Of a DNA stretch of 54,169 bases, positions 2,601 to 20,154 are shown one piece after another. How positions within the stretch are numbered: position 1 is the first letter of the stretch; each line of letters opens with the position of its first letter. The notes under the pieces were generated by a model. That model did no database searches. It saw only the letters and a program-made list of their open reading frames with translations, and was not told where the DNA came from. The position numbers and the translations under genes were made by a program. This stretch comes from a virus (lineage: Duplodnaviria > Caudoviricetes): IMG/VR virus record IMGVR_UViG_3300048839_000345, positions 1 to 54,169 of that record; one strand, written 5' to 3'.

Positions 2601-3047
2601 ATGGCCAAATCCAAGTCGCAGGTTGTTGCGTTCAATGCGGGTGAGCTTGGCAAGGAAGCCCTTGCCCGCGTCGATCTTGAGAACTATCCGCGCGGCGCCG
2701 AAATCATGGAGAACATTGTCCCGCTGAGGCAGGGCGGGATGACCAAGATGCCCGGCACGCAGTATGTCGGCGAGACGCCCTCCAGCGGTGTCGCCTATGT
2801 TCGGCCGTTCGTGTTTTCCGAAAGCCAGCGCTTCGCCATGGAGCTTAGCGAGAACAAGGTGCGCCTGATCTTCGAGGGCGAGTATGTTGCTGTCGCTGGT
2901 GCTGCCGCGACTGTGGGCAGCTGGACTGATGAAAGCGCGACGACTTCGGCGGGTGGCGGTGCGCCTCCGGATGGCGGCACGGGCGATATCGATTTTGTCT
3001 ACGACGACTGGTTTGTTGGCGGCGGCGGGGAGTGGGTCTTGCCATGA
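2601..3047 (+). CDS. Tail tubular protein B (nozzle), N-terminal part
   Basis: AFNAGELG...RVDLENY...ENIVPLRQGGMTKMPGT is the typical N-terminus of gp12-like nozzles; SD GAGGA before ATG 2601. Confidence 0.8.
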   Translation: MAKSKSQVVAFNAGELGKEALARVDLENYPRGAEIMENIVPLRQGGMTKMPGTQYVGETPSSGVAYVRPFVFSESQRFAMELSENKVRLIFEGEYVAVAGAAATVGSWTDESATTSAGGGAPPDGGTGDIDFVYDDWFVGGGGEWVLP

Positions 3048-5326
3048 GCGCGTCGATCGGAGTTGTCGGGGCCGTCATTACGTTGACGGGAGACGTGGGC
3101 GAGACGGCAATTGCGCAGTCGGAGGTAACGACAGCGGCGCCGAACGACGCGGTCAGTTTTAAGTTCAACGTGTCACGCCGTGCTGTGACGTTCCGCGTCG
3201 GGACGACTGCGGGCGCGGAGGATATTGTTCAGGCGTCTGCTTTTGCGCCAGGGGACCATGTCGTCACGTTCACGCCGGGCGTCGGCACCTACTACGTTCG
3301 CTTCGAAGTGCGGGGCGTTGGCGTGTCTTATGTTACCGGCTTCGCGCGGATTGCCCCGGGGTTCTTGGAGTTGCCCACACCGTGGACAGCTTCGCAAGTT
3401 CCGCAGCTGCGTTTTACGCAAAGCCTCAACACGATGTGGATCGCGGGCGCGGGCAAGGAGATGCACGTCTTCGAGCGGCGCGGCACTAACAGTTGGTCGC
3501 TGCGCCCGTTCCTGCAGGTCGATGGGCCGTTCAATGCGCTCAACCTGTCTAATACTACATTGACGCCCTCGGCGCGCACGGGGGCGGTGACGATTACGGC
3601 GAGCGCGTCGCTGTTTGCAACTTATGATGTGGGCAGCCTTATCAAGCTGATCCACTCCGGGCAGTTCGTAACGGCAGACCTCGACGCAGTGGATGCCGTG
3701 ACCGATTCCATCCTGGTCACTGGGGTCGAGGCGACGCGCATCTTCCAACGCTCGATCACGGGCACGTTTAGCGGCACAATCGTGCTGGAGCGCTCGATCG
3801 GCAACGATGTTAACTGGCAGACGGTCTCGACTTTTTTCAGCGTGGCCTCGGGTTCGTTCGATGACGATCTTGACAATGTCGTGGCCTATTACCGGTTCCG
3901 CATGAGCGCCTACACATCCGGGTCGGCGACGGCCAGCCTGACCTATTCTGGCGGCCTGACGGAAGGCGTCGGGCGGATCGTGACGGTGACGGCGGACAAT
4001 GCGGTTACCGTCGATGTCATCACGCCGTTCGGCCAGACTATTGCCACAGCGCTCTGGCAGTTTGGGGCATGGTCGGGCCGGTTCGGTCACCCGACCGCAG
4101 TGGCACTGTTCGATGGCAGGCTGTGGGCTGGGCGCGGCAACCAGTACTGGGGCTCGCAGAGTGACGACTTCGGGAGCTTCGAGATCGGCCCGCTGGCGAA
4201 CCAGGCGATCGGGCGCAGCTTTGGCGGACGGATGTCGTCCATCCGGTGGCTGGGCGGTTCGACCCGTCTCCTCGCTGGCTTGTCTGGCTTTGAGGGCGAG
4301 ATCGGGTCGAACAGCTTCAACGAGGTGCTGAAGCCGGACAATGTGCGGGCCATCAACAAGACGACCAAAGGCTCGGCGGACGCCAGCCAGCTTATGATTG
4401 ATGACGCGGCCGTGTTTGTGAGCCGGTCGAAAAAGCGGCTTTACCGGTTCGGGTATTCAAACCAGATCGGCGACATGTCCACGGTGGACCTGACGCGCCT
4501 GAACAAGGAGATCGCGGGTGCCGGCGGATTCCGCGAACTGGACTGGCAGCAGGAACCTGAGCCGCGGATCTGGGCGGTGCGCGAGGACGGGCAGGTCGGA
4601 GCGCTGGTGTTCGATCTGGAAGAGGGCGTTGTGGCCTGGTGCCGCATGGTGGTCGATGGCTTTGTCGAGAGTGTGTGCTGCCTGCCGTCACCGGGCGAAG
4701 AGGACGAGGTGTATTTCGTCGTGCGCCGCACGGTCGATGGCGACACGGTGCGCTATGTGGAGAAGCTGGCGCCCGAGGCATGGGACACGATCGAAGACGC
4801 CTGGCGCCTGCATTGCGCGATTGCGTACAGCGGGGCAGCGACCGACACGGTCACGGGGCTCGACCATCTGGAGGGCCGCACGGACGTCTATGTCTGGGCC
4901 AATGGCCGCGAAGAAGGTCCGCTCACGGTCACGGGCGGTGAGGTGACGCTGAGCTTCGAGGCGACGTACGCCATTGCGGGGCTTAAGTATTCGGGCCGGT
5001 ACAAGTCAGGGCGCCTTGCATGGGGCGCGCAGATGGGGTCTGCGCTGACGACCAAGAAGCAGCTCGAAGAGATCGGGTTGGTGATCCACCGCACGGCGGG
5101 CGGCGCCCTGAAGTGGGGGCCGGACTTCGACGACATGGAGCAGCTGGACGACCGCATCGCGGACAACTCGCTGGTGTTCGACGCATCAGTCCAAGAATGG
5201 TCAGGAGATCACGACTTCAACGTCCACAGCTGGACCGAGCCGGATGTGCGGCTGCACATCACGATGGACACGGCAGGGCCGGCAACTGTGCTCGCGGTTG
5301 CCCATGTTCTGAAAGTGAACGGGTGA
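3044..5326 (+). CDS. Tail tubular protein B (nozzle), C-terminal part
   Basis: LPTPW...LRFTQS, HPTAVALFDGRLW, WQQEPEPRIW, VVAWCR, TGLDHLEG motifs; ATGA overlap with upstream part. Confidence 0.85.
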   Translation: MSASIGVVGAVITLTGDVGETAIAQSEVTTAAPNDAVSFKFNVSRRAVTFRVGTTAGAEDIVQASAFAPGDHVVTFTPGVGTYYVRFEVRGVGVSYVTGFARIAPGFLELPTPWTASQVPQLRFTQSLNTMWIAGAGKEMHVFERRGTNSWSLRPFLQVDGPFNALNLSNTTLTPSARTGAVTITASASLFATYDVGSLIKLIHSGQFVTADLDAVDAVTDSILVTGVEATRIFQRSITGTFSGTIVLERSIGNDVNWQTVSTFFSVASGSFDDDLDNVVAYYRFRMSAYTSGSATASLTYSGGLTEGVGRIVTVTADNAVTVDVITPFGQTIATALWQFGAWSGRFGHPTAVALFDGRLWAGRGNQYWGSQSDDFGSFEIGPLANQAIGRSFGGRMSSIRWLGGSTRLLAGLSGFEGEIGSNSFNEVLKPDNVRAINKTTKGSADASQLMIDDAAVFVSRSKKRLYRFGYSNQIGDMSTVDLTRLNKEIAGAGGFRELDWQQEPEPRIWAVREDGQVGALVFDLEEGVVAWCRMVVDGFVESVCCLPSPGEEDEVYFVVRRTVDGDTVRYVEKLAPEAWDTIEDAWRLHCAIAYSGAATDTVTGLDHLEGRTDVYVWANGREEGPLTVTGGEVTLSFEATYAIAGLKYSGRYKSGRLAWGAQMGSALTTKKQLEEIGLVIHRTAGGALKWGPDFDDMEQLDDRIADNSLVFDASVQEWSGDHDFNVHSWTEPDVRLHITMDTAGPATVLAVAHVLKVNG

Positions 5327-8238: not shown

Positions 8239-11200
8239 ATGGCTGACGGTACCGATCCGGTCTCTCTGGAAGAACAGCGCAGGCAGGCGGCTGACCGTCT
8301 ATTCGCTCAGGAAATGGCCGACGAAGACCAGCGCAAGGCATTCCGTCAGCAGTCCTGGGACATGACGCAGCCGCCGCCGGATCAGGCGGGTGAGGCGTTG
8401 CAACTTGGAAACAAGTTCGGCGTGCCGCGCAAGGCGGTGGAAGCCGACCCCGATTATTGGAAGCGCCGCGATCAGGAGGCGCGCCGGAAGCTGCTCATGG
8501 AAGCCAGCCCGCGCACGATGGCGTGGCTCGATGACGAAGACAATTACGCTGTTGCCAAGGATGACGTGGACATCCTGAGCCAGATCGAATCGACGTTCTC
8601 GAAGATCGGCTATGCAGCGAAGGGCGGTTTCCAGCGGTTCGCGGCTGTTGGCGTTGCTGGTGAGCGCCAGGCGATGGGCGAGACGATGGAGTTCTATCGC
8701 CAGCGCGATGAATGGGAGGCCCGTCAGGAGCGCCGCAAGAAGCTGGGACAGGATGCTCCGCGTGGCTGGCGCACCGTTCGGGTGCCTGATGTTGGCACGA
8801 TCTCCGGGTTCGACGTTCCTATCTCCTACGGCAATCTCGACACCGCACCTGTTGCGTCCGGCATTGTCCGCGAGGAAGTGCGCAAGGCGCTGCCAGAGAG
8901 CATGCGGCCCATGTTCGCGTCACAGGTCGGGATTGATGACGCCAAGGCCGTGCGCGGCGTGCTGGAGCGCCGCATGGCCACAGTCGATGCGCGCGCCCGG
9001 GCGAAGGTTGAGGAGTTCACCGAGACGCTGGAGAAGGCGCAGACCGGCAATTATGTCGCTGATGGCCTGCTGTCGGGTGTCACGTCTCTGACCGAGATGG
9101 CACCGTCGATGGCGGCCTTCTTCGCTCTGCGCGGGCGGGGCGGGGCGACGGTCGCGTCTGGCGCGATGGGCGTACAGGTTGCTGGCGCCGAGTATCTTGA
9201 GGGCATCTACAACCTGAACCTGAGCGAGCGTGACGCCAGTGATCGGGCCTTGCTGCAGGCCGGCGTGGAGATCGTCACGGAGCGGATCAGCCTTGGTTAT
9301 CTCGATGAATTGCTGAAGTCTGATCGTGGCTTCGTCAGCAAGCTGGCCCTCAGCATGGGGCAGGAACAAATCCAGGAACAGTTTGCGACGCTGGGCAACC
9401 GCCTTGTCGATATTCCGTATGTCGATCAGGACATGACTATCGGGCGCTTCGTCGAGGAGACCCCTTATTACGCAGGCCAGACGGCGCTGGCCACGCTTGT
9501 CGCCTCTGGCATCACCAACACCACCCTCATCGGCCTCGACACCGCCGTGCGCGACATGGTCGAGCGCTCGCTCCTGTCCCAGCCCTCGGCAGGGGACGCT
9601 GCGATCGACGCTGTCCTGAAGAAGGCGAAGGAAAGCCGCCTCGGCAAGCGCAGCCCTGAGAAGCTGAAGGATGTGCTGGACCGCCAGGCTGCGGGCACGG
9701 GCGTCGAGACGGTCACTGTGGACCTGGACGAACTGGCTCAGACGCTGAAGGCAAAAGGCGTCGAGCTATCCGATGCGCTTGATGGTCTCGGTGTGCCGCG
9801 TGATGAGCTGCAGCAGAAATGGGAGAACTTCGGCGAGATCGAGGTCAAGTTGTCCGACCTTGCCACGAGCGACCTGATGCGTCTGCACGGCGCCGAGACG
9901 CAGGCCAATACGCGCCGCAATGACGATCCGTATACGCCAGCCCGCAAAGAGAAGATGCGGGCCGCTCTTGATCCGGAGATGCGCGAGACTGCAAAGCGTA
10001 TTTATGACGACCTGCAGAACGGCGCTGACATGGCCGAGAAGGAGCAGCAGGTTGCGGACCGTGTTCGCCAACGCATCCGCGGCGCAGGCATCCTCGCCGA
10101 GCGCGAGCAGGAGAATGCCAGCGTGGCGATCCAGACCGCGATGGTCACGACCCTGGCGCGCCGCGTTGGCGCCGATCCGCTGGAGTTCTTCGACCAGCAC
10201 TACCCGCGCATTCAGGGCAGCATTGACGGGATGGTGGCTGAGGAGGGGGCGCTGGAATCATCAGCCAGTCCGTCGAACAAAGAAGCCCGTCTCGCGTTTT
10301 TTGAGGCTATGCCGGAGGTTCTTGAAAGCGCGCGCAGGCATTCCGAGAAGATTCGTGGGAATGCCGATTCTGTAGACGCCGACCTATCCAATCCAGGGTT
10401 TCTTGAGCGTCAGTATCTGGAAGACCTGAACCGCAAAAAAAACGAGCTAAACGAAAAGGCTCAGGATGCCAATCAGGCTGGTGATGCGGTTGCCTATGAG
10501 GCGTTCGCGGATCAAGCTGATGAGGTCCGCCAGCAAATTAAGGCAGAGGAAGCGCGTCAGAAGCAGGCTGTTAAGCGTGCGATGGAGGAGGGGGCGCTGG
10601 AGTCCGGCGCTACATCAATCGTCGCAAGAGGTGAGTACAGCCGAGGACTTGGCGCGTTCTCGGTAGAGATCGTACCGGAACAACGGGCAGATGGCTCATA
10701 TGTTTTAACGCGCAAAATTACTGACGAAAGCGGAGAGAGGCAGGAATACTTTAGCAAAGACGGTTCGTGGCAAAGCGGCCGCCCATCAACTGTGGTGTTT
10801 GGTGCTAACATTGGGCAAATCACCGAAGGGCCTGAAGTTTTCCCTGATATCTCAAGCGCTCTGCAAATGGGCCGTGATGCTGGATTGCCAGAGGGCGCCT
10901 CTATTGTCTCGGGCAACGTGGCGGCAGGCGACCTGCTCGCTCAAGAAATCACCATGCCCGACCTTGACAACAAGGACGAGGTGGAGGCGGCGCTGAACGA
11001 TCCGGAGACGGATGTGCTGCCGCTGACCGAGGGTATGCAAATCCTGGAGCTTGACGAGTTCATTGCGTTCCACGGCACGACCGCGAAGTTCGACCAGTTC
11101 AAGAGCGACAAGATCGGCGCGGGCGAAGGGGCGCAGGCGTTCGGCCCGGGGCACTATTTCACTCAGAGCGCTGGCGTGGCGAACTGGTATCGCAAGCGGA

Positions 11201-14200
11201 TGAAGAAGCTGTCGCCCGGTATCAAGCTGGGCAAGGAGTCGTTCAACAAGGCGAACCCTGCGCACTTTGCGTTGGCTGAGTATTGGAAGTACCGGGACAA
11301 GTTTCTGCACCACGACTTGTTCGGCGGGTATAGGTCTCTGGCTTCAGACATGACGCACTCCGGCGCGCTGGAGCGGGCAATCTTTTCGCTTCAGTATGAG
11401 ATCGACCAGATTGAGTCACCCTTCTTGTATCCGGGCCGCGCTGCTTCCGAATATGCGGCTGCGGATCGTCCAGTCATCCGCGACAGAAAGGAGCTTGCTG
11501 CGTTCCTGAAGCAAGGGCTGTCCTACCTCAAGACACTGGACCCTAAATCTTCCAAAGGCATCCCAAAGCCGCGCAAGCCCACCATTCGCGGTGGCGGCAA
11601 CATTTACACCGTTGCGGTCAAGCTGCCCGCCGAGGCAACGATCCAATATGACAAACCGTTTGGCCAGCAGCCCGCCGCTGTGCAGAAGGCGTTCCGCGAG
11701 GCTGCAGAAGCCGGGACGCTCGGTGAGGTGGCCGACCTGATTGCGAAGTATGGCGCGGCGACCCGAATGGGGCCGCTGGTTGCTGCGCTCAAGAAAAGCG
11801 ACACGCCCGCCATGGAGATCATGCGCAGAAACGGCGTGCGCGGCGTGCGGTATCTCGACGGCATGTCGCGCGGCAAGCGGAACCCGGCGAACCAGACGTT
11901 CAACTATGTCGTGTTCAATGACGGCGACGTCAAGGTTCTCGATCGCAAGGGCCTGCTGTTCCAGGAGTTGGACCAACAGCGCCGAGGCCAGTTCTCACCG
12001 AGCCGCAATATCATCACCATGTTCGAGGCGGCCGATGTCACGACCCTGATGCACGAGGGCGCGCACTGGTATCTGGCTGAGATCGAGCGGATGGCAATGG
12101 CGGAGAACGCGCACCCGTTCGTGACCGAGCAGTGGGAGGCAGTGAAGAAGTGGGGCAAGGTCGGCCCTGACTTCCGGATGTACGACGATATGGGCCGCGT
12201 CACGCCAGAGGGCCGCGAGCTTCAGGAAGCCTTCGCCGAGACGTTCGAGGTCTACCTCCAGACCGGCAAGGCGCCGGTGCCGTCGCTGCGCGAGGCGTTC
12301 CGCGCGTTCAAGCAGTGGATCACGGCGCTGTGGCGCGACATCCGTACCGGGAAGATCAGGCTGCCGGAGCGGGCGAACCTGTCGCCCGAGATCACGCGCG
12401 TCATGGACCGCATGCTGGCCGTAGACGAAGAGATCGAGAGCCAGACCGCTGAGGTGGTCACCAAGGCCGAGGCAATGGCGAACGACCTCTATGACCGGGG
12501 CATCATCACCAAGCGCCAGCGCGATGCGGCGATCATGAACCTGGAGCAGGCCCGCGAGGCTGCCAAGGAAGATCTGATGGCGCAGATCATGCAGGCCGAG
12601 ATGCGCGTGCGTGAGGCCCAGCTGAGCGCCGAGCAGCGCCGCATCAAGGGCGACGTGACGCGGGAGTATGACCGCTCCGCTGTCGGCCGCGCGGTGTCGT
12701 GGCTGGGGTATGGTACGTGGAAGGGGGATGTGCCTGTTTCGGAGACGGAGGGGCTGGATAGCGAGGTGGAGTTTTATCAATCCATCCGCACCGCCACCCG
12801 CATGCCGATGGAAGACATCTACGCCTGGGTCGTCAATAACGTCGATAGCAAGATCCAACAGTTCTCCAGCGGCGACGAAGGCACGATGATGTCGTGGCGC
12901 CTGAGCGATGCGCCGGACGCGCCGCGCGTGCTGCTGTCCATTCGCCTGAGCCGCAAGGGCCGGGCCGATGTGAACCTGTTCCTCAACAACAAGATGGCCG
13001 ACGCGCTCGACGAGATTAGCGACCCGGTCGAGCGCTCCCGCATCGCGACTGAAATGTTCAGCCAGGCCATCATGGTGATGCGCCAGTATTCGGCCGAGAC
13101 GCCGGACCTGAAGGCGTTCAACTTCATTGCGGCCGAGAACGAGAAGGCGGGCCGCAAGGCCAAGAGCCGCGAGGAACTGTACCGGTTCATGCTTTCAACT
13201 ATGCGCATGGACGGGTATACTGCATATGAGATCGGCAGCCAGACCAGCGTGGTGCGGCAGGCTGACGGCGTGAAATCTGCAGACCCGCTATTTGACGGCG
13301 CCGGGTTTGTGATGATCCGGGATGGAGTGGATGTCGATGAGTTCGCCAGAAATGAGATACTTCGCGGCTCTCAGAGCGGGGGAGACGCCGGAGAAGTCGT
13401 CACGGCCCTCACCGCCGTCCGCCTCTCTCGTCCCGCCCGTGGAGGAATGGACCGAGGACGACTGGAAGCTGGCCGAGCTGATCCTGGCGGCGCTGTAGAC
13501 GATACGCTGGGGCAGTCGCCCTTAACGCCAGAGAATTACAAGCCAGTTGAAGAAATTGCGTCTGTAGACGACTCCTTCGCTTTTGCTCGCAGCCAGCCGT
13601 TTGCGACTAACAGAGAACTGAAGGTGGAGATGCAGCGCCGCGTCGAAAGTGCGGCTGAAGACAACAACGCCGATCTTTCCGACGAAGATTATCTTGTTCG
13701 CATGACAGAGCGCGACGCGCGTTCTGCGCTGATCGGCAATGCCAATGCCGTCGGCTGGTACGATGAGAAGGTGCGCAAGTCGATCACTGCACTAACCTTG
13801 CTCCACCCCGAACTCGAGACGGACGCCGAGGCGCGGTTCGCGTTTACGTGGGCGCTGGCTGTTACGTCAAACGGCTTGAAGGTCGATAAGAACTTCGAGC
13901 TGGCGGAGACGGTTTATTCAGCATGGAAAGCTTCCTCTGCTGATGGCGCCTCGCGCCGCATGCCGACCAATGTGGGGATTGGACAAGCTGCTGGCGCGAT
14001 CAACAAGTCGCTTGGCCTTTATAACACGCTTGTTGAAAAACACGGCGTGCAGGTCGTTCTTGAGTTTATGACAGCCCGTCAGACGGTGAAGCAGGTTCAG
14101 GATTTCACAGGCGAGAACGTCTCAGGCGAGAACCTGACGACAGAGGTCTTTGGCGCTGCGGCGCTTGGCCCCAAGATTGGCAACGGGTTCTTTATGAACC

Positions 14201-17200
14201 TCTATGGCGAGTTCGGGCAGCTGACCATGGACCGCTGGCTGATGAGAACCTGGGGCCGGTGGAACGCCACCCTGATCACGGACTATAGCAGGCAGGCGCG
14301 CGAAAGCCGGAAGAAGCTGGGAGCCCTCCTGAAGCTTCTCTCCAACGAAGACAAGCGTGCCCTCGAAAAGATCATCCGCCGACCGATCAAGCTGCGCGAA
14401 ATCGACGAGGTCGGTCTTGCCATTCAGAGGGCGAGCCAGAAGCCTGCTTTGCGCGAAAAGATGAACGAACTGGGCTGGTTTGGTAACGACGAACCATCAG
14501 AGATAACTGATATTCTTGGTCCTTTCCCCAAGGGCAAGCCCCGCAAATCAGTCGGCGCCGAGGTCCGCAAGCGCGGGAACGCGCTCGCCAAGTATCTCGA
14601 CGGCCAAAAAGAGCAGCCGTCTGGCCCACCCGAACGCGCCAAGATCCGCGCTGTTTTTGCGCGTGCGCTTGATAACCTGAAAAACGATTTCCCTACCCTG
14701 ACAATGGCTGACTTGCAGGCGCTGCTGTGGTATCCTGAGAAACGCCTCTATGACACAGCCAAGGCCAAAGAGGGCGAGGAGACCGAAGGTTATGAAGACG
14801 ACGAAGCCCCCGACTACGCCAACGCAGCGCGCAACCTCGTCGTCTCCAAAGGCGTCTCCGAAGCCAGCGTCCGAGACGCCTATGCCCGAATCGATGCCGA
14901 CGTACAGGCCGCTCGACGAGCAGGACGAGTGGAACGAGGAGGCCAGGGACGAAGCGGAGATGGCAGCCTTGGAACTCAAGATGGCGCGCTCCAAGACGAC
15001 ACCCTAGGCCAAGAAGCCGCCCCCACCTTTTACTCCGCCCTCGGGCGTTTCATCGCATCCTCCAACACCGCCCGCGCGCCTGCTGCGCAGTGGAAAGGCA
15101 TGATCTCCAACGCGCCCGGCGTGAAGGCCGAGGAGGTCGAGTGGACCGGCGTGATGGACTGGCTCGACGCGAGCGAGGGGCCGGTGACACGCGAGGCTTT
15201 GGCTGCGTTCGTTGAGGCGAATGGGGTGCGGGTGGAGGAGGTGAGCAAGGGCGGGGCTGGTGCCGCGCCGGCGTTCCAGATTGATGGCGAGTTTAACGTT
15301 CCTGCTATTCGTGACGCCATTGGTCGTGCGCTCCGCGATGGCGCAACGGATTACGGCGATCTTCAAATGAACCTTGAAAACGATGGCGACTTTTACCGCT
15401 ACATGGAGCGCTCTTATCCTGAGTATTTTGAGGAAGATGAAGCAGATTCCGGACGCCTTGCCGAGCGCGTGCTTGAGGACGCCGAAGTCAACTTTGGCGC
15501 GGCCACTAAATTTGAATCTTATGTTCTGCCTGGCGGGACAGGGTATACTGAACTGCTGCTGACAATACCAAAAGTGCGCGGTCCAGAGACGCACTGGGAT
15601 GAAGATAGCGTTGTTGCGCATACTCGCTTCAAGGAGCGCACTGGCCCGAACGGCGAGCGTGTTCTGGCGCTGGAGGAGATCCAATCGGATTGGCACCAAC
15701 AGGGGCGTGAGGATGGCTATGAGCAGACTGTTGATCCCCAAGTGGCGGAGGACGCAAGAGCGGCATTTGAAAAGGCGCGCATTGAACGCAATGCAGCTGA
15801 TAAAGCCATACTCGACTTCATTGCCGAAATGGAAAAGCCAGACTTGCGGACCCTCTTCGAGGCGATCTACTGGGGATCCAGCCGAGACAGCGCATTTTTC
15901 GATGATCTGGTTGAGTCCGTATACGCCACAGCAGATTTCAGAAACCTGACCGAACAGCAACAGCAATTGATTCGCCGACGCGGACTGCAAGAATTGCGCA
16001 TGAATTACACTGGCTTCTCGAAAGAAGCCCGCGCTCAGATTTCTGAGCTTGGCGCAAATTTTGATGCAGCGCAGTTGCGTTTCACGGAAGCCGACACTGC
16101 CTATATGAATGCGGCCTATCCGGGAGGCGTCCCCAACGCCCCCTTCAAAAACAACGCATGGGCCAACCTCGTCCTTAAGCGGATGATCCGGTACGCAGCG
16201 GAGAACGGCTTCGACGCGGTGGCGTGGATACCGGGCAATGTGCAGAATGGCCAGATCGTCGAGGACACAGGCGACAATCGCGGCGACTTCTACGACAAGA
16301 TCGTGCCGAACCTGGCGAGCAAGCTGGGGAAGAAGTATGGGGCAAAGGTGGGGCGGATGCCGCTCGACGCTGCCACACGGGACGAAGGCAATCGCCGCCT
16401 TGGCTATGAAGTCGTTGACGAAAACGGCGACCAGTACGATTCCTTCGATACCATTCAGGCTGCGCAGCAAGCCGCTGAGGATGCTGGCCCCGGCTATGCT
16501 GTGCGCGGTCTGGGCGCGCCGCCGGTCATGTTCCACTCCCTCCCCATCACCCCCGAACTCGCCGCCGCCGCGATGACCGAAGGCTTCCCATTGTTCCAGC
16601 GCGGCGACCCCAAAGGCTGGGGCGAAACAGCCCCGCCGCCAGACCTGCCGCCCATGCGCCTCGACCTTGAGGCAGTGCGCGAACTCTATGGTGAGGACGC
16701 TGTCCGCCGCCTGCCCAAGCCGATCCGCGACCGCTCCCGCGACAAGACCAGCATCGACGGCATGATGGACATCATCCGCGCGAACGTGAAGACGTTGAAG
16801 CGCAAGCCGCCCATGACGCTGTTCCAGTACATCCGGTCCCGCAAGGCGCGTACCGTGGCGGGCCAGACCGTGCCGATCAAGAAGTGGGGCATCAAGGGCG
16901 CGGCTGACGAACTAAAAGCCATGAACCGCGAAGACCTGATCAACGAAACGAACGGCATTCATATCGACTATGTCCGCGAGTCGGCGGCCGAGGCGGGCTA
17001 CCTGCCAGAGGACGCCACGCTCAACGACTTCCTGAACGCCATCGATCGTGAGGCGCGGGGCGAGCCGGTCTACAGCCGGTTTGACCAGAAGGAAGTCGAG
17101 GACCAGCGCTTCGCCAAGGAGTGGGCTGACTGGCTGGACAGTCAGGGCGTGGACATGTTCGAGGCGAACCAGAAGAAGCTGAAGGCTGAAATCGCCAAGA

Positions 17201-20154
17201 TCGTCACCTCGACGGCGGCCGACGCGCGCACGCCAGACGAAATTGCAGCCAAGCTGGGCTTCGCAGACGGGGAGACCATGCTCAACATGCTGGCGCTCAT
17301 GGGCAACCGCGACCAGTGGGTCAAAGAGGAAACCGACCGGCGCATGCGGGAGGAGTTCGGCGACCCGATGGCGGACGGCACGTTCGAGGAAGAGGCCCGC
17401 GTCATCGCCGAGGCTGAGGTGATGTCCCGCGCCGCCGAGATCGAGATGGAAGCACTGGCCCGCGCTGTGGGGGAGCCTGCCGCCTCGAAGCTCGCCAAAG
17501 AAATGGCGATGGACTCGCTGGGTCTGATGACGGTCAAGGAACTGGAGGGCTGGGAGCGGTTTCTGAACGCCGAGCGCCGCGAGATGAACAACACGCTGGA
17601 GGCCGTCAAGCGCGGCGACATGGTGCAGGCGTTCATTCACAAGCGGCGGCAGCTGGTGAACATGCACCTCGCCCGGGCCGCGCGCGAAAAGTCGATTGCG
17701 ATTGAGAAAACCCGCAAGGACCTGCTGACCTACTATTCGTCCAAGGGCCGCCGGGACAAGATCGCGCCGGACTATCTGGAAAAGATCGAGGCCCTTCTGG
17801 AGGGGTATGAGCTGCGCGCCTCGAAGCAGGGGCCGGGCGAGCAGAAGCGGCGGATGTCGGCGAAGGAGTATGTGGACCAGATGATCGCCGATGGCCGCGA
17901 GGCTGAAATTGCGCCGGAAGCGATGATGCTGGCGGAGATGGCAGGCAACAAAGTCTGGCGCGGCCTGACGGCGGATGAGGTCGATTACCTTGCCGGGACG
18001 GTGAAGAACCTGGCCCACCTTGGCCGCACCAAAGGGCGGCTGATGCGAGAGCAGGAGAAGCGCCGGTTTGACGCTGTGGTGGCGGAATTGGTGGATACGC
18101 TGATGGCGGCGCCAAGTTCGCGCCCGCGCGGCAAGTCGTTCTCTCCGGGCGCGGTGGAGGAAGTCACGACCCGCGCGAGCCAGTTTGATGCCAAGCTCAC
18201 AAAGATCCAGGACGAGCTTGAACTTCTGGACGGGCGCGAAGCAGGGCCGCTGCAAACTACGCTGCTGCTTCCCATGGAGCAGGCGGATGTCCGTAAGGGC
18301 ACAATGATGCGGGGCGCCATCAAGGAAATTCGCCGCCTCTGGAATGATGTGCCGGCCCAACTTCGTCGCCAGACCTTGAGCCGCCGGGTGGCAACGCCTG
18401 AGCTTAAACTTCCGACCAATGAGAACATGACCTTGATGGACGTGGTCATCATCGGTCTCAACTGGGGCAACGCTGGCAATCGCCAGGCCCTCATTGATGG
18501 ATACGGCTGGGACCCTGCCTCTGTTGAGGCCGTTCTGGATCGCTATCTGACAAACGAGCACTGGCAATTCATCGAGGGTGTCTGGAGCCTGATCGGCTCC
18601 TACAAGGCCGACGCTTTTGCTCTTGAAAAACGCATCACCGGTGTCGAACCAAAAGCCGTGGAAGGCATCACCTTCACGCTACCGTCTGGCCGCGTGGTGA
18701 AGGGGCAGTACTACCCGCTCAAGTACGATGCCGATCAGGAAAGCGCACTCTCGGTCAAACAGCAAAAGCTGGACGAGAAGCAGATGCTGTCCGAGATGGG
18801 GCTTTCGTTCTCGAAGCCCATGACAAAGACGGGTCACCTGATCTCGCGCGTCGGCTCCGGCGGCAAGCCGGTGAAGGTGTCGATTGATGTCTTCTATGAG
18901 CATGTCGAGAATGTCGTGCATGACATCGCGTTCCGCCCAGCGGTGATTGATGCGTTCAAGATTATCCGTGATCCGCGCTTTACTCAGGCGTACATCGACG
19001 CGGCCGGTAAGGCTCAGTATGACCGGCTGCTGCCATGGCTGCACTCCATTGCCACCAACAACCGGGCGCGGTTCTCCTCGACCTTCGCCAGGACGATGAC
19101 GTTCTTCCGGGGCAGCTGGTCCATCGCGATTATGGGCTACTCCTTCAGCACGGCGACCCAGCAGCTGACCGGCTATCTGGAGGCGGGGACCGAGATCGGG
19201 GGGCGGTGGGTTATGCAAGGCGCGCTCAAGTCCCTGTCGATGGGGCCTGCCTCGTTCTGGCGTGAATGGGCGTTCATCCGCGACCGAAGCGAGTACCTGT
19301 CCAACCGCGTGGCGTTCGGCAAGGAGCGTGACATTCGAGCCGTCCGCACCCGAGCAACGATTGGCGGGCCGCTGACACCCATCGGTGACAACGCGTTCGT
19401 GTTCCTCAGCGTGATGGATGCGATTGTCGGCACCGCTGTCTGGCGCGGCGCTTATGACAAAGCGATGGCTGGCAAGGTCAAGGGCATTACCAACGGCGAG
19501 GAAGACGCTGCGATTGCTTACGCTGACCGGGCGGTCCAGCGGTCCCTGTCGTCTGGCGAAACGTATGCCCTGCCTGAAATCATGCGTGAGGGCGAGATCA
19601 GCGCGTTGATGACCATGGTCTATTCCTATGGCTCGAAAACCTACAACCGCCAGCGTGTCCGCAACATGAAACTGCGGCAGGGCCGCATTGGTGTGGCAGA
19701 GTTCACGATCAACACGCTGATTGCTTTCACGGCTGTGCCGATCCTGGCCGCTCTGCTGGCTGGCAGGTTGTGGCCGGATGACGAGGAAGAATGGGAAGAG
19801 CGCGGCGATGATGTCGGCAACGAAATCCTGATGAACGCGGCCGGCACTACGCCTTTTGTGCGGGACATGATTACGCTGCTCGCCAAGCCTCAGTATGGCT
19901 ACCAGCTGTCCCCGGTCCAGAGCACGTTTGAGCAGATCGGCGTGGCGACCCGCTCGGCCGCCGAAGGCAAGACCTTCGACAACGAATACCAAGTCAAGCA
20001 GGCGGTCATGGCCATCAGCACGATATTCCGCCTGCCGGGCGGCCAGCTGTTTGAAACCGGTGACTACGTGTACGACCTTTACATGGGCGATGAGGACCCA
20101 TTGGAAGACCCCGCAGACGCGGCACGGGAGGCGTTCATTCGGAGCGAACGGTAG
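8239..20154 (+). CDS. Giant polyvalent internal virion/ejection protein (gp16/DarB-like) with ART-like, HEXXH metallopeptidase-like, HhH-glycosylase-like and EEIQSD domains
   Basis: 3971 aa, third ejection-protein position; FHGT...GEGAQAFGPGHYF (~11060-11945), HEGAH (12052-12066), GPKIG...MDRW...QALLW (~13600-14840), EEIQSDWHQ (15673-15699). Confidence 0.85.
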   Translation: MADGTDPVSLEEQRRQAADRLFAQEMADEDQRKAFRQQSWDMTQPPPDQAGEALQLGNKFGVPRKAVEADPDYWKRRDQEARRKLLMEASPRTMAWLDDEDNYAVAKDDVDILSQIESTFSKIGYAAKGGFQRFAAVGVAGERQAMGETMEFYRQRDEWEARQERRKKLGQDAPRGWRTVRVPDVGTISGFDVPISYGNLDTAPVASGIVREEVRKALPESMRPMFASQVGIDDAKAVRGVLERRMATVDARARAKVEEFTETLEKAQTGNYVADGLLSGVTSLTEMAPSMAAFFALRGRGGATVASGAMGVQVAGAEYLEGIYNLNLSERDASDRALLQAGVEIVTERISLGYLDELLKSDRGFVSKLALSMGQEQIQEQFATLGNRLVDIPYVDQDMTIGRFVEETPYYAGQTALATLVASGITNTTLIGLDTAVRDMVERSLLSQPSAGDAAIDAVLKKAKESRLGKRSPEKLKDVLDRQAAGTGVETVTVDLDELAQTLKAKGVELSDALDGLGVPRDELQQKWENFGEIEVKLSDLATSDLMRLHGAETQANTRRNDDPYTPARKEKMRAALDPEMRETAKRIYDDLQNGADMAEKEQQVADRVRQRIRGAGILAEREQENASVAIQTAMVTTLARRVGADPLEFFDQHYPRIQGSIDGMVAEEGALESSASPSNKEARLAFFEAMPEVLESARRHSEKIRGNADSVDADLSNPGFLERQYLEDLNRKKNELNEKAQDANQAGDAVAYEAFADQADEVRQQIKAEEARQKQAVKRAMEEGALESGATSIVARGEYSRGLGAFSVEIVPEQRADGSYVLTRKITDESGERQEYFSKDGSWQSGRPSTVVFGANIGQITEGPEVFPDISSALQMGRDAGLPEGASIVSGNVAAGDLLAQEITMPDLDNKDEVEAALNDPETDVLPLTEGMQILELDEFIAFHGTTAKFDQFKSDKIGAGEGAQAFGPGHYFTQSAGVANWYRKRMKKLSPGIKLGKESFNKANPAHFALAEYWKYRDKFLHHDLFGGYRSLASDMTHSGALERAIFSLQYEIDQIESPFLYPGRAASEYAAADRPVIRDRKELAAFLKQGLSYLKTLDPKSSKGIPKPRKPTIRGGGNIYTVAVKLPAEATIQYDKPFGQQPAAVQKAFREAAEAGTLGEVADLIAKYGAATRMGPLVAALKKSDTPAMEIMRRNGVRGVRYLDGMSRGKRNPANQTFNYVVFNDGDVKVLDRKGLLFQELDQQRRGQFSPSRNIITMFEAADVTTLMHEGAHWYLAEIERMAMAENAHPFVTEQWEAVKKWGKVGPDFRMYDDMGRVTPEGRELQEAFAETFEVYLQTGKAPVPSLREAFRAFKQWITALWRDIRTGKIRLPERANLSPEITRVMDRMLAVDEEIESQTAEVVTKAEAMANDLYDRGIITKRQRDAAIMNLEQAREAAKEDLMAQIMQAEMRVREAQLSAEQRRIKGDVTREYDRSAVGRAVSWLGYGTWKGDVPVSETEGLDSEVEFYQSIRTATRMPMEDIYAWVVNNVDSKIQQFSSGDEGTMMSWRLSDAPDAPRVLLSIRLSRKGRADVNLFLNNKMADALDEISDPVERSRIATEMFSQAIMVMRQYSAETPDLKAFNFIAAENEKAGRKAKSREELYRFMLSTMRMDGYTAYEIGSQTSVVRQADGVKSADPLFDGAGFVMIRDGVDVDEFARNEILRGSQSGGDAGEVVTALTAVRLSRPARGGMDRGRLEAGRADPGGAVDDTLGQSPLTPENYKPVEEIASVDDSFAFARSQPFATNRELKVEMQRRVESAAEDNNADLSDEDYLVRMTERDARSALIGNANAVGWYDEKVRKSITALTLLHPELETDAEARFAFTWALAVTSNGLKVDKNFELAETVYSAWKASSADGASRRMPTNVGIGQAAGAINKSLGLYNTLVEKHGVQVVLEFMTARQTVKQVQDFTGENVSGENLTTEVFGAAALGPKIGNGFFMNLYGEFGQLTMDRWLMRTWGRWNATLITDYSRQARESRKKLGALLKLLSNEDKRALEKIIRRPIKLREIDEVGLAIQRASQKPALREKMNELGWFGNDEPSEITDILGPFPKGKPRKSVGAEVRKRGNALAKYLDGQKEQPSGPPERAKIRAVFARALDNLKNDFPTLTMADLQALLWYPEKRLYDTAKAKEGEETEGYEDDEAPDYANAARNLVVSKGVSEASVRDAYARIDADVQAARRAGRVERGGQGRSGDGSLGTQDGALQDDTLGQEAAPTFYSALGRFIASSNTARAPAAQWKGMISNAPGVKAEEVEWTGVMDWLDASEGPVTREALAAFVEANGVRVEEVSKGGAGAAPAFQIDGEFNVPAIRDAIGRALRDGATDYGDLQMNLENDGDFYRYMERSYPEYFEEDEADSGRLAERVLEDAEVNFGAATKFESYVLPGGTGYTELLLTIPKVRGPETHWDEDSVVAHTRFKERTGPNGERVLALEEIQSDWHQQGREDGYEQTVDPQVAEDARAAFEKARIERNAADKAILDFIAEMEKPDLRTLFEAIYWGSSRDSAFFDDLVESVYATADFRNLTEQQQQLIRRRGLQELRMNYTGFSKEARAQISELGANFDAAQLRFTEADTAYMNAAYPGGVPNAPFKNNAWANLVLKRMIRYAAENGFDAVAWIPGNVQNGQIVEDTGDNRGDFYDKIVPNLASKLGKKYGAKVGRMPLDAATRDEGNRRLGYEVVDENGDQYDSFDTIQAAQQAAEDAGPGYAVRGLGAPPVMFHSLPITPELAAAAMTEGFPLFQRGDPKGWGETAPPPDLPPMRLDLEAVRELYGEDAVRRLPKPIRDRSRDKTSIDGMMDIIRANVKTLKRKPPMTLFQYIRSRKARTVAGQTVPIKKWGIKGAADELKAMNREDLINETNGIHIDYVRESAAEAGYLPEDATLNDFLNAIDREARGEPVYSRFDQKEVEDQRFAKEWADWLDSQGVDMFEANQKKLKAEIAKIVTSTAADARTPDEIAAKLGFADGETMLNMLALMGNRDQWVKEETDRRMREEFGDPMADGTFEEEARVIAEAEVMSRAAEIEMEALARAVGEPAASKLAKEMAMDSLGLMTVKELEGWERFLNAERREMNNTLEAVKRGDMVQAFIHKRRQLVNMHLARAAREKSIAIEKTRKDLLTYYSSKGRRDKIAPDYLEKIEALLEGYELRASKQGPGEQKRRMSAKEYVDQMIADGREAEIAPEAMMLAEMAGNKVWRGLTADEVDYLAGTVKNLAHLGRTKGRLMREQEKRRFDAVVAELVDTLMAAPSSRPRGKSFSPGAVEEVTTRASQFDAKLTKIQDELELLDGREAGPLQTTLLLPMEQADVRKGTMMRGAIKEIRRLWNDVPAQLRRQTLSRRVATPELKLPTNENMTLMDVVIIGLNWGNAGNRQALIDGYGWDPASVEAVLDRYLTNEHWQFIEGVWSLIGSYKADAFALEKRITGVEPKAVEGITFTLPSGRVVKGQYYPLKYDADQESALSVKQQKLDEKQMLSEMGLSFSKPMTKTGHLISRVGSGGKPVKVSIDVFYEHVENVVHDIAFRPAVIDAFKIIRDPRFTQAYIDAAGKAQYDRLLPWLHSIATNNRARFSSTFARTMTFFRGSWSIAIMGYSFSTATQQLTGYLEAGTEIGGRWVMQGALKSLSMGPASFWREWAFIRDRSEYLSNRVAFGKERDIRAVRTRATIGGPLTPIGDNAFVFLSVMDAIVGTAVWRGAYDKAMAGKVKGITNGEEDAAIAYADRAVQRSLSSGETYALPEIMREGEISALMTMVYSYGSKTYNRQRVRNMKLRQGRIGVAEFTINTLIAFTAVPILAALLAGRLWPDDEEEWEERGDDVGNEILMNAAGTTPFVRDMITLLAKPQYGYQLSPVQSTFEQIGVATRSAAEGKTFDNEYQVKQAVMAISTIFRLPGGQLFETGDYVYDLYMGDEDPLEDPADAAREAFIRSER
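13337..13498 (+). CDS. Putative nested acidic microprotein 1 (+1 frame inside giant gene)
   Basis: MSSPEMRYFAALRAGETPEKSSRPSPPSASLVPPVEEWTEDDWKLAELILAAL; GGAG upstream; codon bias switches to this frame; start uncertain (ATGs at 13322, 13331, 13337, 13352). Confidence 0.5.
   Translation: MSSPEMRYFAALRAGETPEKSSRPSPPSASLVPPVEEWTEDDWKLAELILAAL
14882..15007 (+). CDS. Putative nested acidic microprotein 2 (+1 frame inside giant gene)
   Basis: MPESMPTYRPLDEQDEWNEEARDEAEMAALELKMARSKTTP; codon bias switches to this frame; start uncertain (14750, 14882 or 14894). Confidence 0.45.
   Translation: MPESMPTYRPLDEQDEWNEEARDEAEMAALELKMARSKTTP

Follow-up and report, generated by a model that had tools for sequence, protein, structure and literature searches.

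Positions 13337 to 13498 of the window (the whole 54,169-nucleotide stretch of viral DNA that was analysed) probably hold a real 53-codon gene that overprints a giant gene of the same strand in its +1 frame and is translated from its own start with no frameshifting. Judged from its substitutions and codon usage, one stretch of DNA here very likely encodes two proteins, of which the small one is preserved while the corresponding spacer of the giant one drifts. The features concerned are as follows.

8239..20154, + strand: giant ORF of 3971 codons, predicted phage polyvalent virion protein (from the ORF list and translation); it sets frame 0
12778..13425, + strand: module 1, frame 0; its 3' end holds the start of the nested gene
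13324..13327, + strand: GGAG, probable Shine-Dalgarno (SD) of the nested gene, within frame-0 codons GAT GGA G (D-G-V)
13337..13498, + strand: nested +1 gene, 53 codons plus TAG (MSSPEMRYF...LILAAL); alternative starts ATG 13322 and 13331
13337..13426, + strand: nested gene, N-terminal part; overlies the conserved end of module 1 and shows little conservation in +1
13427..13495, + strand: conserved tail LVPPVEEWTEDDWKLAELILAAL (+1), read in frame 0 as Arg/Gly linker SRPARGGMDRGRLEAGRADPGGA
13496..13498, + strand: stop TAG of the nested gene, its position conserved in relatives (as TAA in L002)
13498..13515, + strand: DDTLGQ junction motif, frame 0, where frame-0 constraint resumes and module 2 begins
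13498..14994, + strand: module 2, frame 0, widespread conserved domain
14915..15007, + strand: second nested +1 coding segment DEQDEWNEEARDEAEMAALELKMARSKTTP, then TAG 15005-15007; +1 is open from 14702

Based on its domain content, 8239-20154 is assigned as encoding a phage polyvalent protein. The Pfam search of the giant ORF showed a large polyvalent-protein-associated domain (LPD), LPD22, at residues 39-129 (E 1.6e-19, 70.4 bits vs cut-off 28.6) and a weak match to ART-PolyVal (24.6 bits, under the cut-off of 31.2), and its translation contains the HExxH motif HEGAH. The ORF adjoins tail genes and has many modules in one polypeptide. Its backbone, phrog_9880, is made up of 8239-12777 and 17002-20151, and modules 1-3 form a cassette inserted between profile positions 1192 and 1233, with no Pfam or PHROG family match to any of the three. 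The genome is 61% G+C, and off-frame ORFs are common in its ORF list, with many nested ones of at least 150 codons.

Start signals and layout of the nested gene

The longest +1 ORF at the end of module 1 runs from 13322 to 13498 and is complete within 8239-20154, on the same strand and in another frame. No antisense ORF of at least 25 codons was found over 13322-13498. Upstream ATGs with a GGAG had been described by an earlier reading made from the window's letters (the sequence-only reading), and both are present, with +1 ATGs at 13322, 13331 and 13337 and the GGAG at 13324-13327. The stop was also where that reading had placed it, the last base of TAG 13496-13498 being the first base of DDTLGQ; this first +1 stop arises from frame-0 V-D (GTA GAC) just 5' of the motif.

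The nested gene has a conserved ribosome-binding site and start codon of its own. The GGAG was kept in the window, L084, L082 and L087 and reads GGGG in L002, giving GGAG-N9-ATG in the window, L084 and L082, GGGG-N9-ATG in L002 and GGAG-N6-TTG in L087, where the TTG lies six bases past the GGAG and directly after a +1 TGA. The ATG at 13337 sits 9 nt past the GGAG and was kept in 4/4 sequences (window, L002, L082 and L084, as in all such counts at this junction) by T-ending D/N codons of frame 0. For an SD and start, 9 nt is among the longer of the usual spacings. All four sequences have GAT at D-G and (G/A)AT at (D/N)-E-F, codons used at 0.32-0.41 (GAT) and 0.25-0.37 (AAT), and three of the four have GGA at the Shine-Dalgarno, a codon with a share of only 0.07-0.14 of Gly codons in these ORFs. 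In 4/4 no stop interrupts the +1 frame between the first ATG and the tail, an outcome whose chance, given the frame-0 protein and own codon usage, was 0.163, 0.138, 0.103 and 0.076. Because there are only five distinct DNA relatives at junction 1, from about two to three independent lineages, the start-codon and openness statistics are modest.

We propose that translation of the nested gene would start at ATG 13337 with the GGAG nine bases 5', and that its first 30 codons would overlie the conserved end of module 1, free to vary. The functional part would be the 23-residue acidic amphipathic C-terminal segment LVPPVEEWTxxDxxLAxLILAAL, which would coincide exactly with the inter-module spacer. 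Read one base earlier, in the frame of the giant gene, the spacer DNA would give a linker rich in Arg and Gly and free of constraint, except that it would have to stay open as far as the LGQ junction motif. Module 2 would be closed by a like construction with an unrelated small protein (14915-15007).

Over the N-terminal part (13337-13426) the variable sites at codon positions 1/2/3 were 0.29/0.32/0.74, the frame-0 pattern, and the codon-usage score was intermediate in both frames. In L082 this part reads MSLRKTKSFEEDNQ. Since these 30 residues are unconserved, a start further downstream or a shift stays compatible with the sequence alone.

Selection and codon usage in the tail

The two readings of the tail agreed with their earlier description: frame 0 over 13438-13497 is the Arg/Gly linker RGGMDRGRLEAGRADPGGAV, with CGA x3, GGA x3 and 6/20 codons ending in G/C, and the +1 frame reads VEEWTEDDWKLAELILAAL with 18/19 codons G/C-ending. 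Frame-specific dN/dS on homologous modules, the check put forward with that description, was run as pN/pS and showed the tail to be constrained in +1. The pooled pN/pS (23 codons, 6 pairs, window, L002, L082 and L084) was 0.31 in +1, 3.04 in frame 0 and 1.08 in +2, from pS/pN of 0.45/0.14, 0.10/0.29 and 0.20/0.22, respectively, so that purifying selection in the nested tail's own frame exceeds the constraint in the host frame. Variable sites at +1 codon positions 1/2/3 numbered 7/4/15 (24 codons), and 17 of the 23 tail residues were invariant, many of their codons showing synonymous changes only. Changes synonymous in +1 alone included CTC/TTG, GTC/GTT, CCG/CCT, CGG/AGA and the stop exchange TAG/TAA; the Arg exchange CGG/AGA is radical in frame 0.

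The codon-usage log-likelihood of the tail in +1 was 0.67 (genuine windows, mean 0.49, sd 0.22), and 0/3798 off-frame windows scored as high. The frame-0 reading of the tail scored -0.49, under all 3799 genuine frame-0 windows. When 3953 sliding 20-codon windows of the giant ORF were ranked by GC at position 1 minus position 3, the junction-1 window ranked 3rd, and the top 0.5% contained only two places, junctions 1 and 2.

The view that there is no gene here, and that a chance open frame, a decaying relic or a DNA- or frame-0-level constraint (Arg/Gly composition, a recombination signal) mimics coding, is most improbable. It can draw on the abundance of off-frame ORFs, many of at least 150 codons, at this G+C content and on G-rich first positions, which inflate +1 GC3. 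Against it stand the pN/pS in +1 and frame 0, a stop conserved through exchange of TAG and TAA, the Arg exchange radical in frame 0 only, a codon-usage score that the off-frame windows did not match, and the homologous called proteins and free-standing copy described below. The frame-specific substitution pattern already contradicts the chance or relic reading, and the relic gene once suggested as an alternative conflicts with a pN/pS of 0.31 in +1. Purifying selection and native codon usage, both in +1 only, instead bear out the proposal that the overprinted ORF is real coding sequence. Because its codon usage is native in +1, the Arg/Gly linker is most likely the out-of-frame read-through of a pre-existing small gene.

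A programmed +1 (or -2) frameshift near 13425 would likewise place the tail under selection, by adding it to module 1 as far as the stop at 13496 and yielding a truncated isoform with an amphipathic helix end. We regard this as very unlikely. Shifted decoding gives shorter products in dnaX (tau/gamma) and in prfB (+1 frameshifting), and under the frameshift reading the locus would be like these in that the shifted frame meets a nearby stop and produces a truncated protein with a new C-terminus. Constraint does switch sharply from frame 0 (..TALTAVxL) to +1 (LVPPVEEW..), the N-terminal part of the +1 ORF is unconserved as protein, and selection on the tail is equally consistent with a C-terminal extension. 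However, unlike dnaX and prfB, the locus showed no conserved slippery site, correctly spaced internal SD or stimulatory structure, and the sequence-only reading's frameshift alternative lacks the first and last of these. The switch site varies, with CGC CTC TCT CGT in the window, CAG CTC ACT CGT in L084, GAA CTT GGT TCC in L002 and AAA CTT GGT TCC in L082. The RNA fold of 13415-13530 was no better than shuffles (z +0.87; 163/200 shuffles at least as good), and Rfam gave no match at E <= 1 except a chance miRNA match on the other strand. A frameshift would also leave unexplained the kept ATGs, the GGAG and the open upstream +1 frame, the SD and ATG that the free-standing copy has of its own, and, at junction 2, +1 stops immediately 5' of an SD with ATG, GTG or TTG. 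A search for an in-frame protein of module plus tail gave 0/67 longer candidates at E <= 10, which is weak evidence. The G5 run (about 13379) was dismissed as a slippage site, being absent in L082.

Module boundaries and relatives of the two nested genes

Module 1 was 62-70% identical in L084, L002 and L082, with variable sites at codon positions 1/2/3 of 0.40/0.32/0.73, the expected pattern of frame-0 coding. Its Pfam matches were sub-threshold and at chance level, it had no PHROG family, and no relatives were found in the species genome, phage or plasmid collections. A relative of module 2 is encoded in 137 viral stretches; the alignment of 35 sequences had a mean column identity of 58%, with no Pfam, PHROG or PDB relative.

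The module junction claimed for the end of the nested gene was confirmed. In 78 of the 80 kept loci homology begins just past the nested gene's end, L084 diverges from the window directly after the nested stop, and in L087 module 1 is fused straight to module-3-like sequence. What lies 3' of module 1 and the nested gene thus differs between sequences, being module 2 in the window, module-3-like in L087 and others again in L084 and in L002/L082. DDTLGQ is repeated at 14995-15012, at the end of module 2, and the motif reads SSSLGQ, DALGQ or DNSLGQ in relatives; alignment with module 2 homologues sets in directly 3' of it. As read from these alignments, the candidate gene at 13337-13498 ends at a true module boundary. 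No promoter or terminator was found at the junctions. Comparison of contigs showed only a weak joint, 12801->13495, one side of which spans 24 letters, and a single loose end, which reads ..VEEWTAEDH in +1.

All five distinct DNA relatives of module 1 (window, L002, L082, L084 and L087/L088) carry the nested gene, so the cassette linkage that had been proposed holds in 5/5, the gene accompanying its upstream module. Among 1.84 billion representatives, the peptide profile matched five proteins at E <= 1e-10; in four of them the start is the aligned Met, and a predicted protein of 53 aa (P0028) starts and ends at positions aligned to the nested gene. Through a cluster-mate of one profile match, a free-standing copy was found in bacterial contig L089. 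This copy has 70 codons, is preceded by AAAGGAAG-N5-ATG and lies between unrelated genes, and the equivalent of frame 0 is open for just 102 codons. It was seen in only 1/61 genomes of its family and may be a stray fragment.

Neither the nested products nor their relatives matched a Pfam, PHROG or NCBIfam family, all matches being far under the cut-offs, and PDB profile searches with the nested products gave nothing significant. The sole PHROG match of the junction-1 product was to an Rz-like spanin at E 0.064. An o-spanin (Rz1-like) identity was rejected on that score and because the 4/4 aligned products have no Cys and so lack a lipobox. A word-based protein search with the peptide gave longer proteins in 0/67 candidates at E <= 10, and a 'near' search gave none. 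Viral contigs were also scanned with degenerate DNA patterns of the tail, which either recovered contigs already known or found nothing.

The arrangement had been said to recur at the end of the next module. A nested +1 ORF is indeed present there, with 36/41 G/C-ending codons in +1 over 14882-15007 vs 18/42 in frame 0, but the two +1 stops are not homologous, the second falling within T-L-G of the second DDTLGQ. The codon-usage score at junction 2 was +0.50 in +1 and -0.72 in frame 0, and no null window matched either. An HMM of the relatives' junction-2 cores, built without the window, matched the window at E 4.7e-6. The pN/pS in +1/frame 0 was 0.35/1.93 (7 loci), 0.24/1.79 (10 loci) and 0.67/1.27 (6 loci). 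Frame-0 conservation (VDxELQA) accounts for some of the +1 similarity seen at this junction.

Relatives of the junction-2 gene comprise 49 distinct sequences, including one from the cultured Limnohabitans phage DC33, which is grown on Limnohabitans sp. DCL3 and has AAGGAG-N7-ATG at this gene, and 26 predicted proteins of 69-73 aa match the 71-aa junction-2 form. An SD and start in +1 directly after a +1 stop was found in 29/49 distinct sequences vs 339/8810 random windows, with the start alternating between ATG, GTG and TTG at a homologous site. The window is among the 20/49 without SD and start near the core; a clear SD is lacking at each of its three candidate starts (ATG 14750, 14882 and 14894). 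The junction-1 and junction-2 proteins showed no detectable relation (hhalign probability 0.12%), and a shared motif EEW[TN]E[DE] was rejected on this result and because the junction-2 core HMM misses junction 1.

Possible roles and known systems

As a tentative guess, the small protein may bind its module, or the polyvalent protein as a whole, during late expression and act as a module-linked accessory, either a folding or packaging helper or an inhibitor. A broader scheme, which we consider doubtful, is that giant polyvalent proteins consist of cassettes of a module plus a small partner gene, and that fusion made the giant frame read through the partners, still functional and one base out of frame, as linkers. 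Each nested gene, unrelated to that of other modules, would in that case encode a partner specific to its module (an inhibitor, chaperone or packaging adaptor), made in the producing cell but undelivered.

An insertion origin, in which a selfish or neutral small gene was inserted in or fused over by the giant gene and tolerated as a loop or linker, appears unlikely; such an origin would not conflict with the overprinted gene that we favour. By codon usage the +1 frame is native and frame 0 the newcomer, a free-standing homologue exists in L089, modules 1-3 themselves lie in an inserted cassette of phrog_9880 (between positions 1192 and 1233), and an out-of-frame HNH gene provides a published precedent (PMC11855218). 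The nested product, however, has no endonuclease or other mobility domain and is under purifying selection across lineages. The gene's start and its first 30 codons are embedded in conserved sequence of the module, not in a separable insert, and no empty site was seen, 5/5 distinct module 1 DNA relatives carrying the gene in what is a small sample.

Still less probable is the antidote role suggested by the sequence-only reading, in which the small acidic protein would be a cassette-specific inhibitor, immunity-like and unpackaged, that acts within the producing cell to neutralise the effector module of its own cassette. The nested gene always accompanies the upstream module, whatever comes next, but this linkage is trivial because the 5' part of the gene lies within the module. 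Junctions 1 and 2 carry unrelated small proteins, as expected for specific partners, and the conserved part of the nested product is an acidic amphipathic segment, yet the frame relation to an Arg/Gly reading by itself imposes some of this acidity. Neither module 1 nor module 2 matched a toxin or enzyme family, so module 1 is not identified as the toxin of a toxin-immunity pair. The assertion that each effector cassette carries its own such gene did not stand, since just two such places occur in the 3971-codon ORF, at only 2 of the many junctions of the giant protein.

Embedded same-strand genes are known from phages, among them lambda Rz1 inside Rz (+1) and phiX174 B inside A and E inside D. 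Like these, the nested gene at junction 1 would be a complete small gene with its own start in another frame of a larger same-strand gene, both products being selected. Unlike Rz1, its product is no spanin and has neither Cys nor lipobox. The host here, unlike in the Rz1 and phiX174 cases, is a giant multi-module virion protein, and the functional part would sit on an inter-module linker with the host frame as passenger.

A further published analogue is an HNH endonuclease gene hidden out of frame within the ShiLan insertion, which is found in DNA methylase genes of actinophages (Arsenault, Gosselin and Gogarten 2025, PMC11855218). There, as proposed here, the host gene reads without a stop across an entire gene in another frame, which has its own start and stop and serves the host product as an extra loop or linker. 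Unlike the HNH gene, the nested gene encodes no endonuclease domain and shows no sign of homing, its start lies inside conserved host-gene sequence, and its product would be a 53-residue, putatively helical peptide of a new family. It is also not sporadic, being present in 5/5 distinct module 1 relatives, a small sample.

Polyvalent proteins are known from conjugative elements as well as phages (Iyer et al. 2017, PMC5512222). The giant ORF resembles them in its LPD22, weak ART-PolyVal, HExxH, many modules and adjacent tail genes; nested genes at module junctions are absent from the architecture given in that paper, whose text does not contain the words 'overlapping', 'frameshift' or 'linker'. 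The statement that no such system had been described is right for polyvalent proteins in the searched literature, but a published analogue exists in the out-of-frame HNH gene that a phage methylase gene reads through (PMC11855218).

Should products of the nested genes be made, the linkers in giant multi-enzyme proteins delivered with the virion would be dual-coding DNA and not spacers, and each module would have its own small protein, which bears on the folding, packaging or inactivity of anti-defence effectors. If the reading of module-and-partner cassettes were also true, each linker would hide a regulator of the preceding module. The locus would offer a clean natural case in which the ancestral and the overprinted frame can be distinguished by codon usage and pN/pS, and the dual-coding claim is directly testable in a cultured phage-host pair. 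Annotation pipelines drop ORFs nested within longer ORFs, so a recurrent class of phage genes would be invisible in databases; the DC33 record annotates only the giant CDS at the locus.

The giant gene and its extra modules

The virus record of 54,169 bases was rated 97% complete, with a G+C content of about 61%. PHROG matches marked a tail protein and an endolysin-like gene (listed here), together with a helicase, a large terminase and a portal-like 'head-tail adaptor'.

3032-5326, tail protein
8239-20154, frame 0, giant ORF of 3971 codons
12778-13425, frame 0, module 1 (3' end, junction 1)
13337-13498, +1 frame, junction-1 nested gene (53 codons and TAG; tail 13427-13495)
13498-14994, frame 0, module 2 (3' end, junction 2)
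14915-15007, +1 frame, core of the junction-2 nested gene
23589-24755, endolysin-like gene

Because it matched Pfam LPD22 (E 1.6e-19) and, below threshold, ART-PolyVal, the giant ORF was assigned to the polyvalent proteins, the class defined by Iyer et al. 2017 (PMC5512222). A PHROG search of the ORF aligned 8239-12777 with positions 35-1192 and 17002-20151 with positions 1233-2221 of PHROG 9880 (2231 positions, function not known), and returned no match for 12778-17000 (modules 1-3). Since this unmatched stretch falls between profile positions 1192 and 1233, modules 1-3 are a cassette inserted in a conserved giant backbone, and the junction-1 nested gene sits inside it.

The frame-0 motif DDTLGQ was present twice, at 13498-13515 and 14995-15012, each time coinciding with the stop of a nested ORF, and LGQ also occurred at residue 169 of the giant protein (8743). 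Relatives read SSSLGQ, DSRLGQ, SSPLGQ, DALGQ and DNSLGQ in its place, with VLEQG, VLNQD and VLYQS at junction 2; the motif resembles a recurring L-x-Q processing site. Another motif, EEGALES, was repeated at residues 668 (10240) and 783 (10585).

Coding and selection in the +1 frame at junction 1

G+C at codon positions 1, 2 and 3 of the giant ORF was 0.65, 0.43 and 0.74. Among 3953 sliding 20-codon windows, the top 0.5% of GC1 minus GC3 lay in two places only, from 13423 and from 14881 onward. The sequence-only reading had proposed a nested acidic microprotein at the first and a recurrence at the second, and its figures were reproduced. Frame 0 of 13438-13497 reads RGGMDRGRLEAGRADPGGAV, with CGA and GGA three times each and 6 of 20 codons ending in G/C; in +1 the reading is VEEWTEDDWKLAELILAAL, where 18 of 19 codons do so. 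The TAG at 13496-13498 adjoins DDTLGQ. Within the +1 ORF (13322-13498), ATGs stand in frame at 13322, 13331 and 13337, and a GGAG occupies 13324-13327. No antisense ORF of at least 25 codons overlapped 13322-13498.

Codon usage was scored by a log-likelihood trained on the giant ORF with both nested sites masked. The +1 tail scored 0.67 (genuine windows, mean 0.49, sd 0.22), a value reached by 0 of 3798 off-frame windows, and the frame-0 reading of the same bases scored -0.49, below all 3799 genuine windows. For 14915-15004 the scores were +0.50 in +1 and -0.72 in frame 0, matched by 0/3777 and 0/3778 null windows.

When viral contigs were scanned at the protein level with 12640-14100 as query, 137 of 140 candidate stretches were confirmed, and 80 loci were kept. 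Homology started at query residues 285-305, just past the +1 stop (residue 287), in 78 of them; module 1 was covered only by locus L002, with L016 and L020 reaching weakly upstream. An alignment-based scan contributed L084 (viral contigs) and L082 (metagenome contigs, one relative in 243 stretches), and gave no module-1 relative among 190 stretches from species genomes. Two further relatives, L087 and L088, were identical to each other in this region. Every relative of junction 1 retained the +1 ORF, with its stop in an unchanged position, and the frame-0 readings over the same bases drifted (RPARGGMDRGRLEAGRADPGGAV, RPARGGMGRGGREAGGPDTGGVV, SSRRGVDSRGSRTGAADSGGAV, SARRGVDGRGSRAGETDPGGAV).

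Table. The +1 reading at junction 1, up to the stop codon
Window: SLVPPVEEWTEDDWKLAELILAAL
L084: SLVPPVEEWAEEDVKLADLILAAL
L002: NLVPPVEEWTAEDHELARLILAAL (stop TAA)
L082: NLVPPVEEWTDEDHELARLILAAL
L087: ..DAEILETVADVDGEELARLILAAR

The stop is followed by module 2 in the window, by module-3-like sequence in L087, and by other sequences in L084 and in L002/L082. Because what follows varies between relatives, the tail belongs to module 1's cassette. In a contig from another metagenome, the match to the window sets in exactly at 13495, where the nested stop and the module boundary lie; the joint (12801 to 13495) is weak, with only 24 letters matching on the other side.

For selection, the window, L002, L082 and L084 were anchored at the stop and Nei-Gojobori counts were pooled over the six pairs. 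Over the final 24 codons in +1, variable sites numbered 7, 4 and 15 at positions 1, 2 and 3, and 17 of 23 tail residues were invariant. In +1, many codons showed synonymous changes and no others: Leu (CTC/TTG), Val (GTC/GTT and GTG/GTC), Pro (CCG/CCT), Glu (GAA/GAG), Thr (ACC/ACA/ACG), Asp (GAC/GAT), Ala (GCC/GCG), Ile (ATC/ATT/ATA), Arg (CGG/AGA) and the stop (TAG/TAA). Over the tail, pS, pN and their ratio were 0.45, 0.14 and 0.31 in +1, 0.10, 0.29 and 3.04 in frame 0, and 0.20, 0.22 and 1.08 in +2. Upstream the pattern reversed, with variation at frame-0 positions 1/2/3 of 0.40/0.32/0.73 in the module 1 body and 0.29/0.32/0.74 over 13322-13424, where the +1 text of L082 (MSLRKTKSFEEDNQ..) was unlike that of other relatives. 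The tail is therefore under selection in +1, with frame 0 as passenger, and the small ORF's first 30 codons lie on frame-0-constrained DNA. In its 23 C-terminal codons the +1 frame encodes protein, and the giant frame takes the same DNA as unconstrained linker.

Probable start, relatives and possible role of the junction-1 product

ATG 13322 and ATG 13337 were both retained in 4/4 sequences, each requiring a T-ending Asp/Asn codon (usage GAT 0.32-0.41, AAT 0.25-0.37). The GGAG, which requires the rare Gly codon GGA (usage 0.07-0.14), was kept in 3/4, with GGG in L002. In L087 the ATGs were lost, the first being followed by a +1 TGA, with frame-0 Glu-Asp in place of Asp/Asn-Glu; this locus retained the GGAG and had a TTG six bases on, directly past the TGA. 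From the first ATG to the tail the +1 frame was open in 4/4; on resampling synonymous codons of the frame-0 protein, the probabilities of openness were 0.163, 0.138, 0.103 and 0.076, evidence that is suggestive, not overwhelming, because the four represent perhaps two or three independent lineages. It is possible that ribosomes reach the tail by shifting from frame 0, but the bases at the switch differed in all four relatives, the RNA there folded no better than shuffles (z +0.87) and Rfam gave no relevant match. The retained start signals and open frame are suggestive of a start of the gene's own, and we infer that translation would begin at ATG 13337.

A profile built from the four peptides was run against 1.84 billion representative proteins and found five at E <= 1e-10. 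P0028 (53 aa, MSSPKTRFFADLREGKVPEKSS..LVPPIEEWTEEDHELARLILAAL) starts and ends as the nested product does; P0029, P0030 and P0031 share this starting Met and continue for 17 to 24 residues beyond the motif; P0032 (156 aa) has two motif copies. None had a functional name (one was labelled 'hypothetical protein') or matched a Pfam or NCBIfam family. A relative of database protein P0033 was free-standing, as a 70-codon ORF behind AAAGGAAG-N5-ATG (L089, 6001-6210, on a contig labelled Hyphomonas MAG), with an unrelated ORF of 196 codons on one side and a murB-like gene on the other; the giant-ORF-equivalent frame is open there for 102 codons only. This copy argues for an independent protein; it is sporadic, as only one of the family's 61 genomes had it. 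The junction-1 nested products are a new small-protein family, with conserved start signals and members outside the giant-gene context. As +1 codon usage is native and that of frame 0 is not, and a free-standing relative exists, the small gene would be the older reading and the giant gene's linker the newer one.

The predicted product is a 53-residue peptide without known family, whose C-terminal segment is amphipathic and net acidic. As the peptide is a constant companion of its module, and those of the two junctions are unrelated, our preferred guess is a module-linked accessory with a putative role in binding the module or polyprotein during assembly; the 'antidote' of the sequence-only reading would be one putative version of this guess.

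Out-of-frame embedded phage genes are known, among them Rz1 in Rz and phiX174 B and E. Among the matches listed from the polyvalent-protein and embedded-gene or overprinting literature, none described nested genes in polyvalent-protein linkers, nor did a term search of the available text of Iyer et al. 2017 (PMC5512222). In the ShiLan-type precedent, as far as the available text describes it, a phage methylase gene reads through a hidden out-of-frame HNH endonuclease gene (PMC11855218).

A second nested gene at junction 2

Junction-2 loci were anchored on the frame-0 motif W[YF][PA]EKRLY at the end of module 2; with duplicates (L001, L083, L085, L086) dropped, there were 57 distinct frame-0 variants and, counting the window, 49 distinct junction sequences. 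In the +1 frame they shared a conserved core, (S/T/N)AQ(Q/D)E.., beyond which the tails were lineage-specific. One type was a 71-85-residue form ending ..NP(G/T)LTRxKAEEMAExFGF at the stop, whose eleven lineage representatives (identity 27-85%) all start at an aligned Met; another was a 124-residue form of A+T-rich phages; short forms, the window's among them, also occurred.

The +1 and frame-0 pN/pS ratios were 0.35 and 1.93 (7 loci, 14 codons), 0.24 and 1.79 (10 loci, 30 codons) and 0.67 and 1.27 (6 loci, 21 codons), and twelve codons upstream the constrained frame was frame 0 (0.33 versus 0.75 in +1). A Shine-Dalgarno (SD) four-mer 4-10 bases upstream of a +1 ATG, GTG or TTG, located after the last +1 stop and ahead of the core, was found in 29/49 distinct sequences versus 339/8810 random windows (3.8%). 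The start at the homologous site alternated between ATG, GTG and TTG (AGGAGG-N6-ATG or TTG, GAGGAGG-N6-GTG, AAGGAG-N7-ATG or GTG); the window's own junction 2 was one of the 20/49 sequences that lacked such a signal, so its nested gene there has no start assigned.

Core similarity is partly a by-product of conserved frame-0 VDxELQA. Among 1428 six-frame ORFs, an HMM of 40 distinct cores, the window left out, matched the window's +1 ORF at 14702-15004 (E 4.7e-6) and did not match junction 1; as hhalign of the two families also gave a probability of 0.12%, the two nested proteins are unrelated.

In L070 (about 1267-1506), a deletion variant fuses frame 0 (..DQEST) straight to the nested frame (GRSLEGSRPKLEALL..EMAEKFGF, stop), and the giant ORF terminates at the nested gene's stop. 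Among A+T-rich relatives (L028, L032, L039-L041, L045, L049, L051, L065, L078), the nested ORF had 124-127 codons (e.g. L049, 4427-4798). It continues across a domain of frame 0 that bears an ART-like motif (TVTVYHHT), so that dual coding appears to span more than 100 codons. A possible third nested +1 type, ..DPN(K/A)PEPETE(Q/E)DGI(Q/K)AE(A/G)LRR.., was seen in L026 (about 4499-4693, with a GC1-GC3 anomaly) and L084 (about 3230-3330, just past the junction-1 stop); this similarity may partly reflect frame-0 likeness (..APL(E/A)GAP).

Among gene-caller predictions the 71-aa form appeared 26 times, in proteins of 69-73 aa that were unnamed or 'hypothetical protein'. It was also present, behind AAGGAG-N7-ATG and unannotated within a 3125-codon CDS, in the cultured Limnohabitans phage DC33. 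A term search of the available text of the DC33 paper gave neither 'overlapping' nor 'mass spectrometry' (PMC12195039). The phage is described there as a 39-kb short-tailed icosahedral phage (PMC12195039), although the taxonomy line of its record (PQ492659.1) reads Inoviridae.
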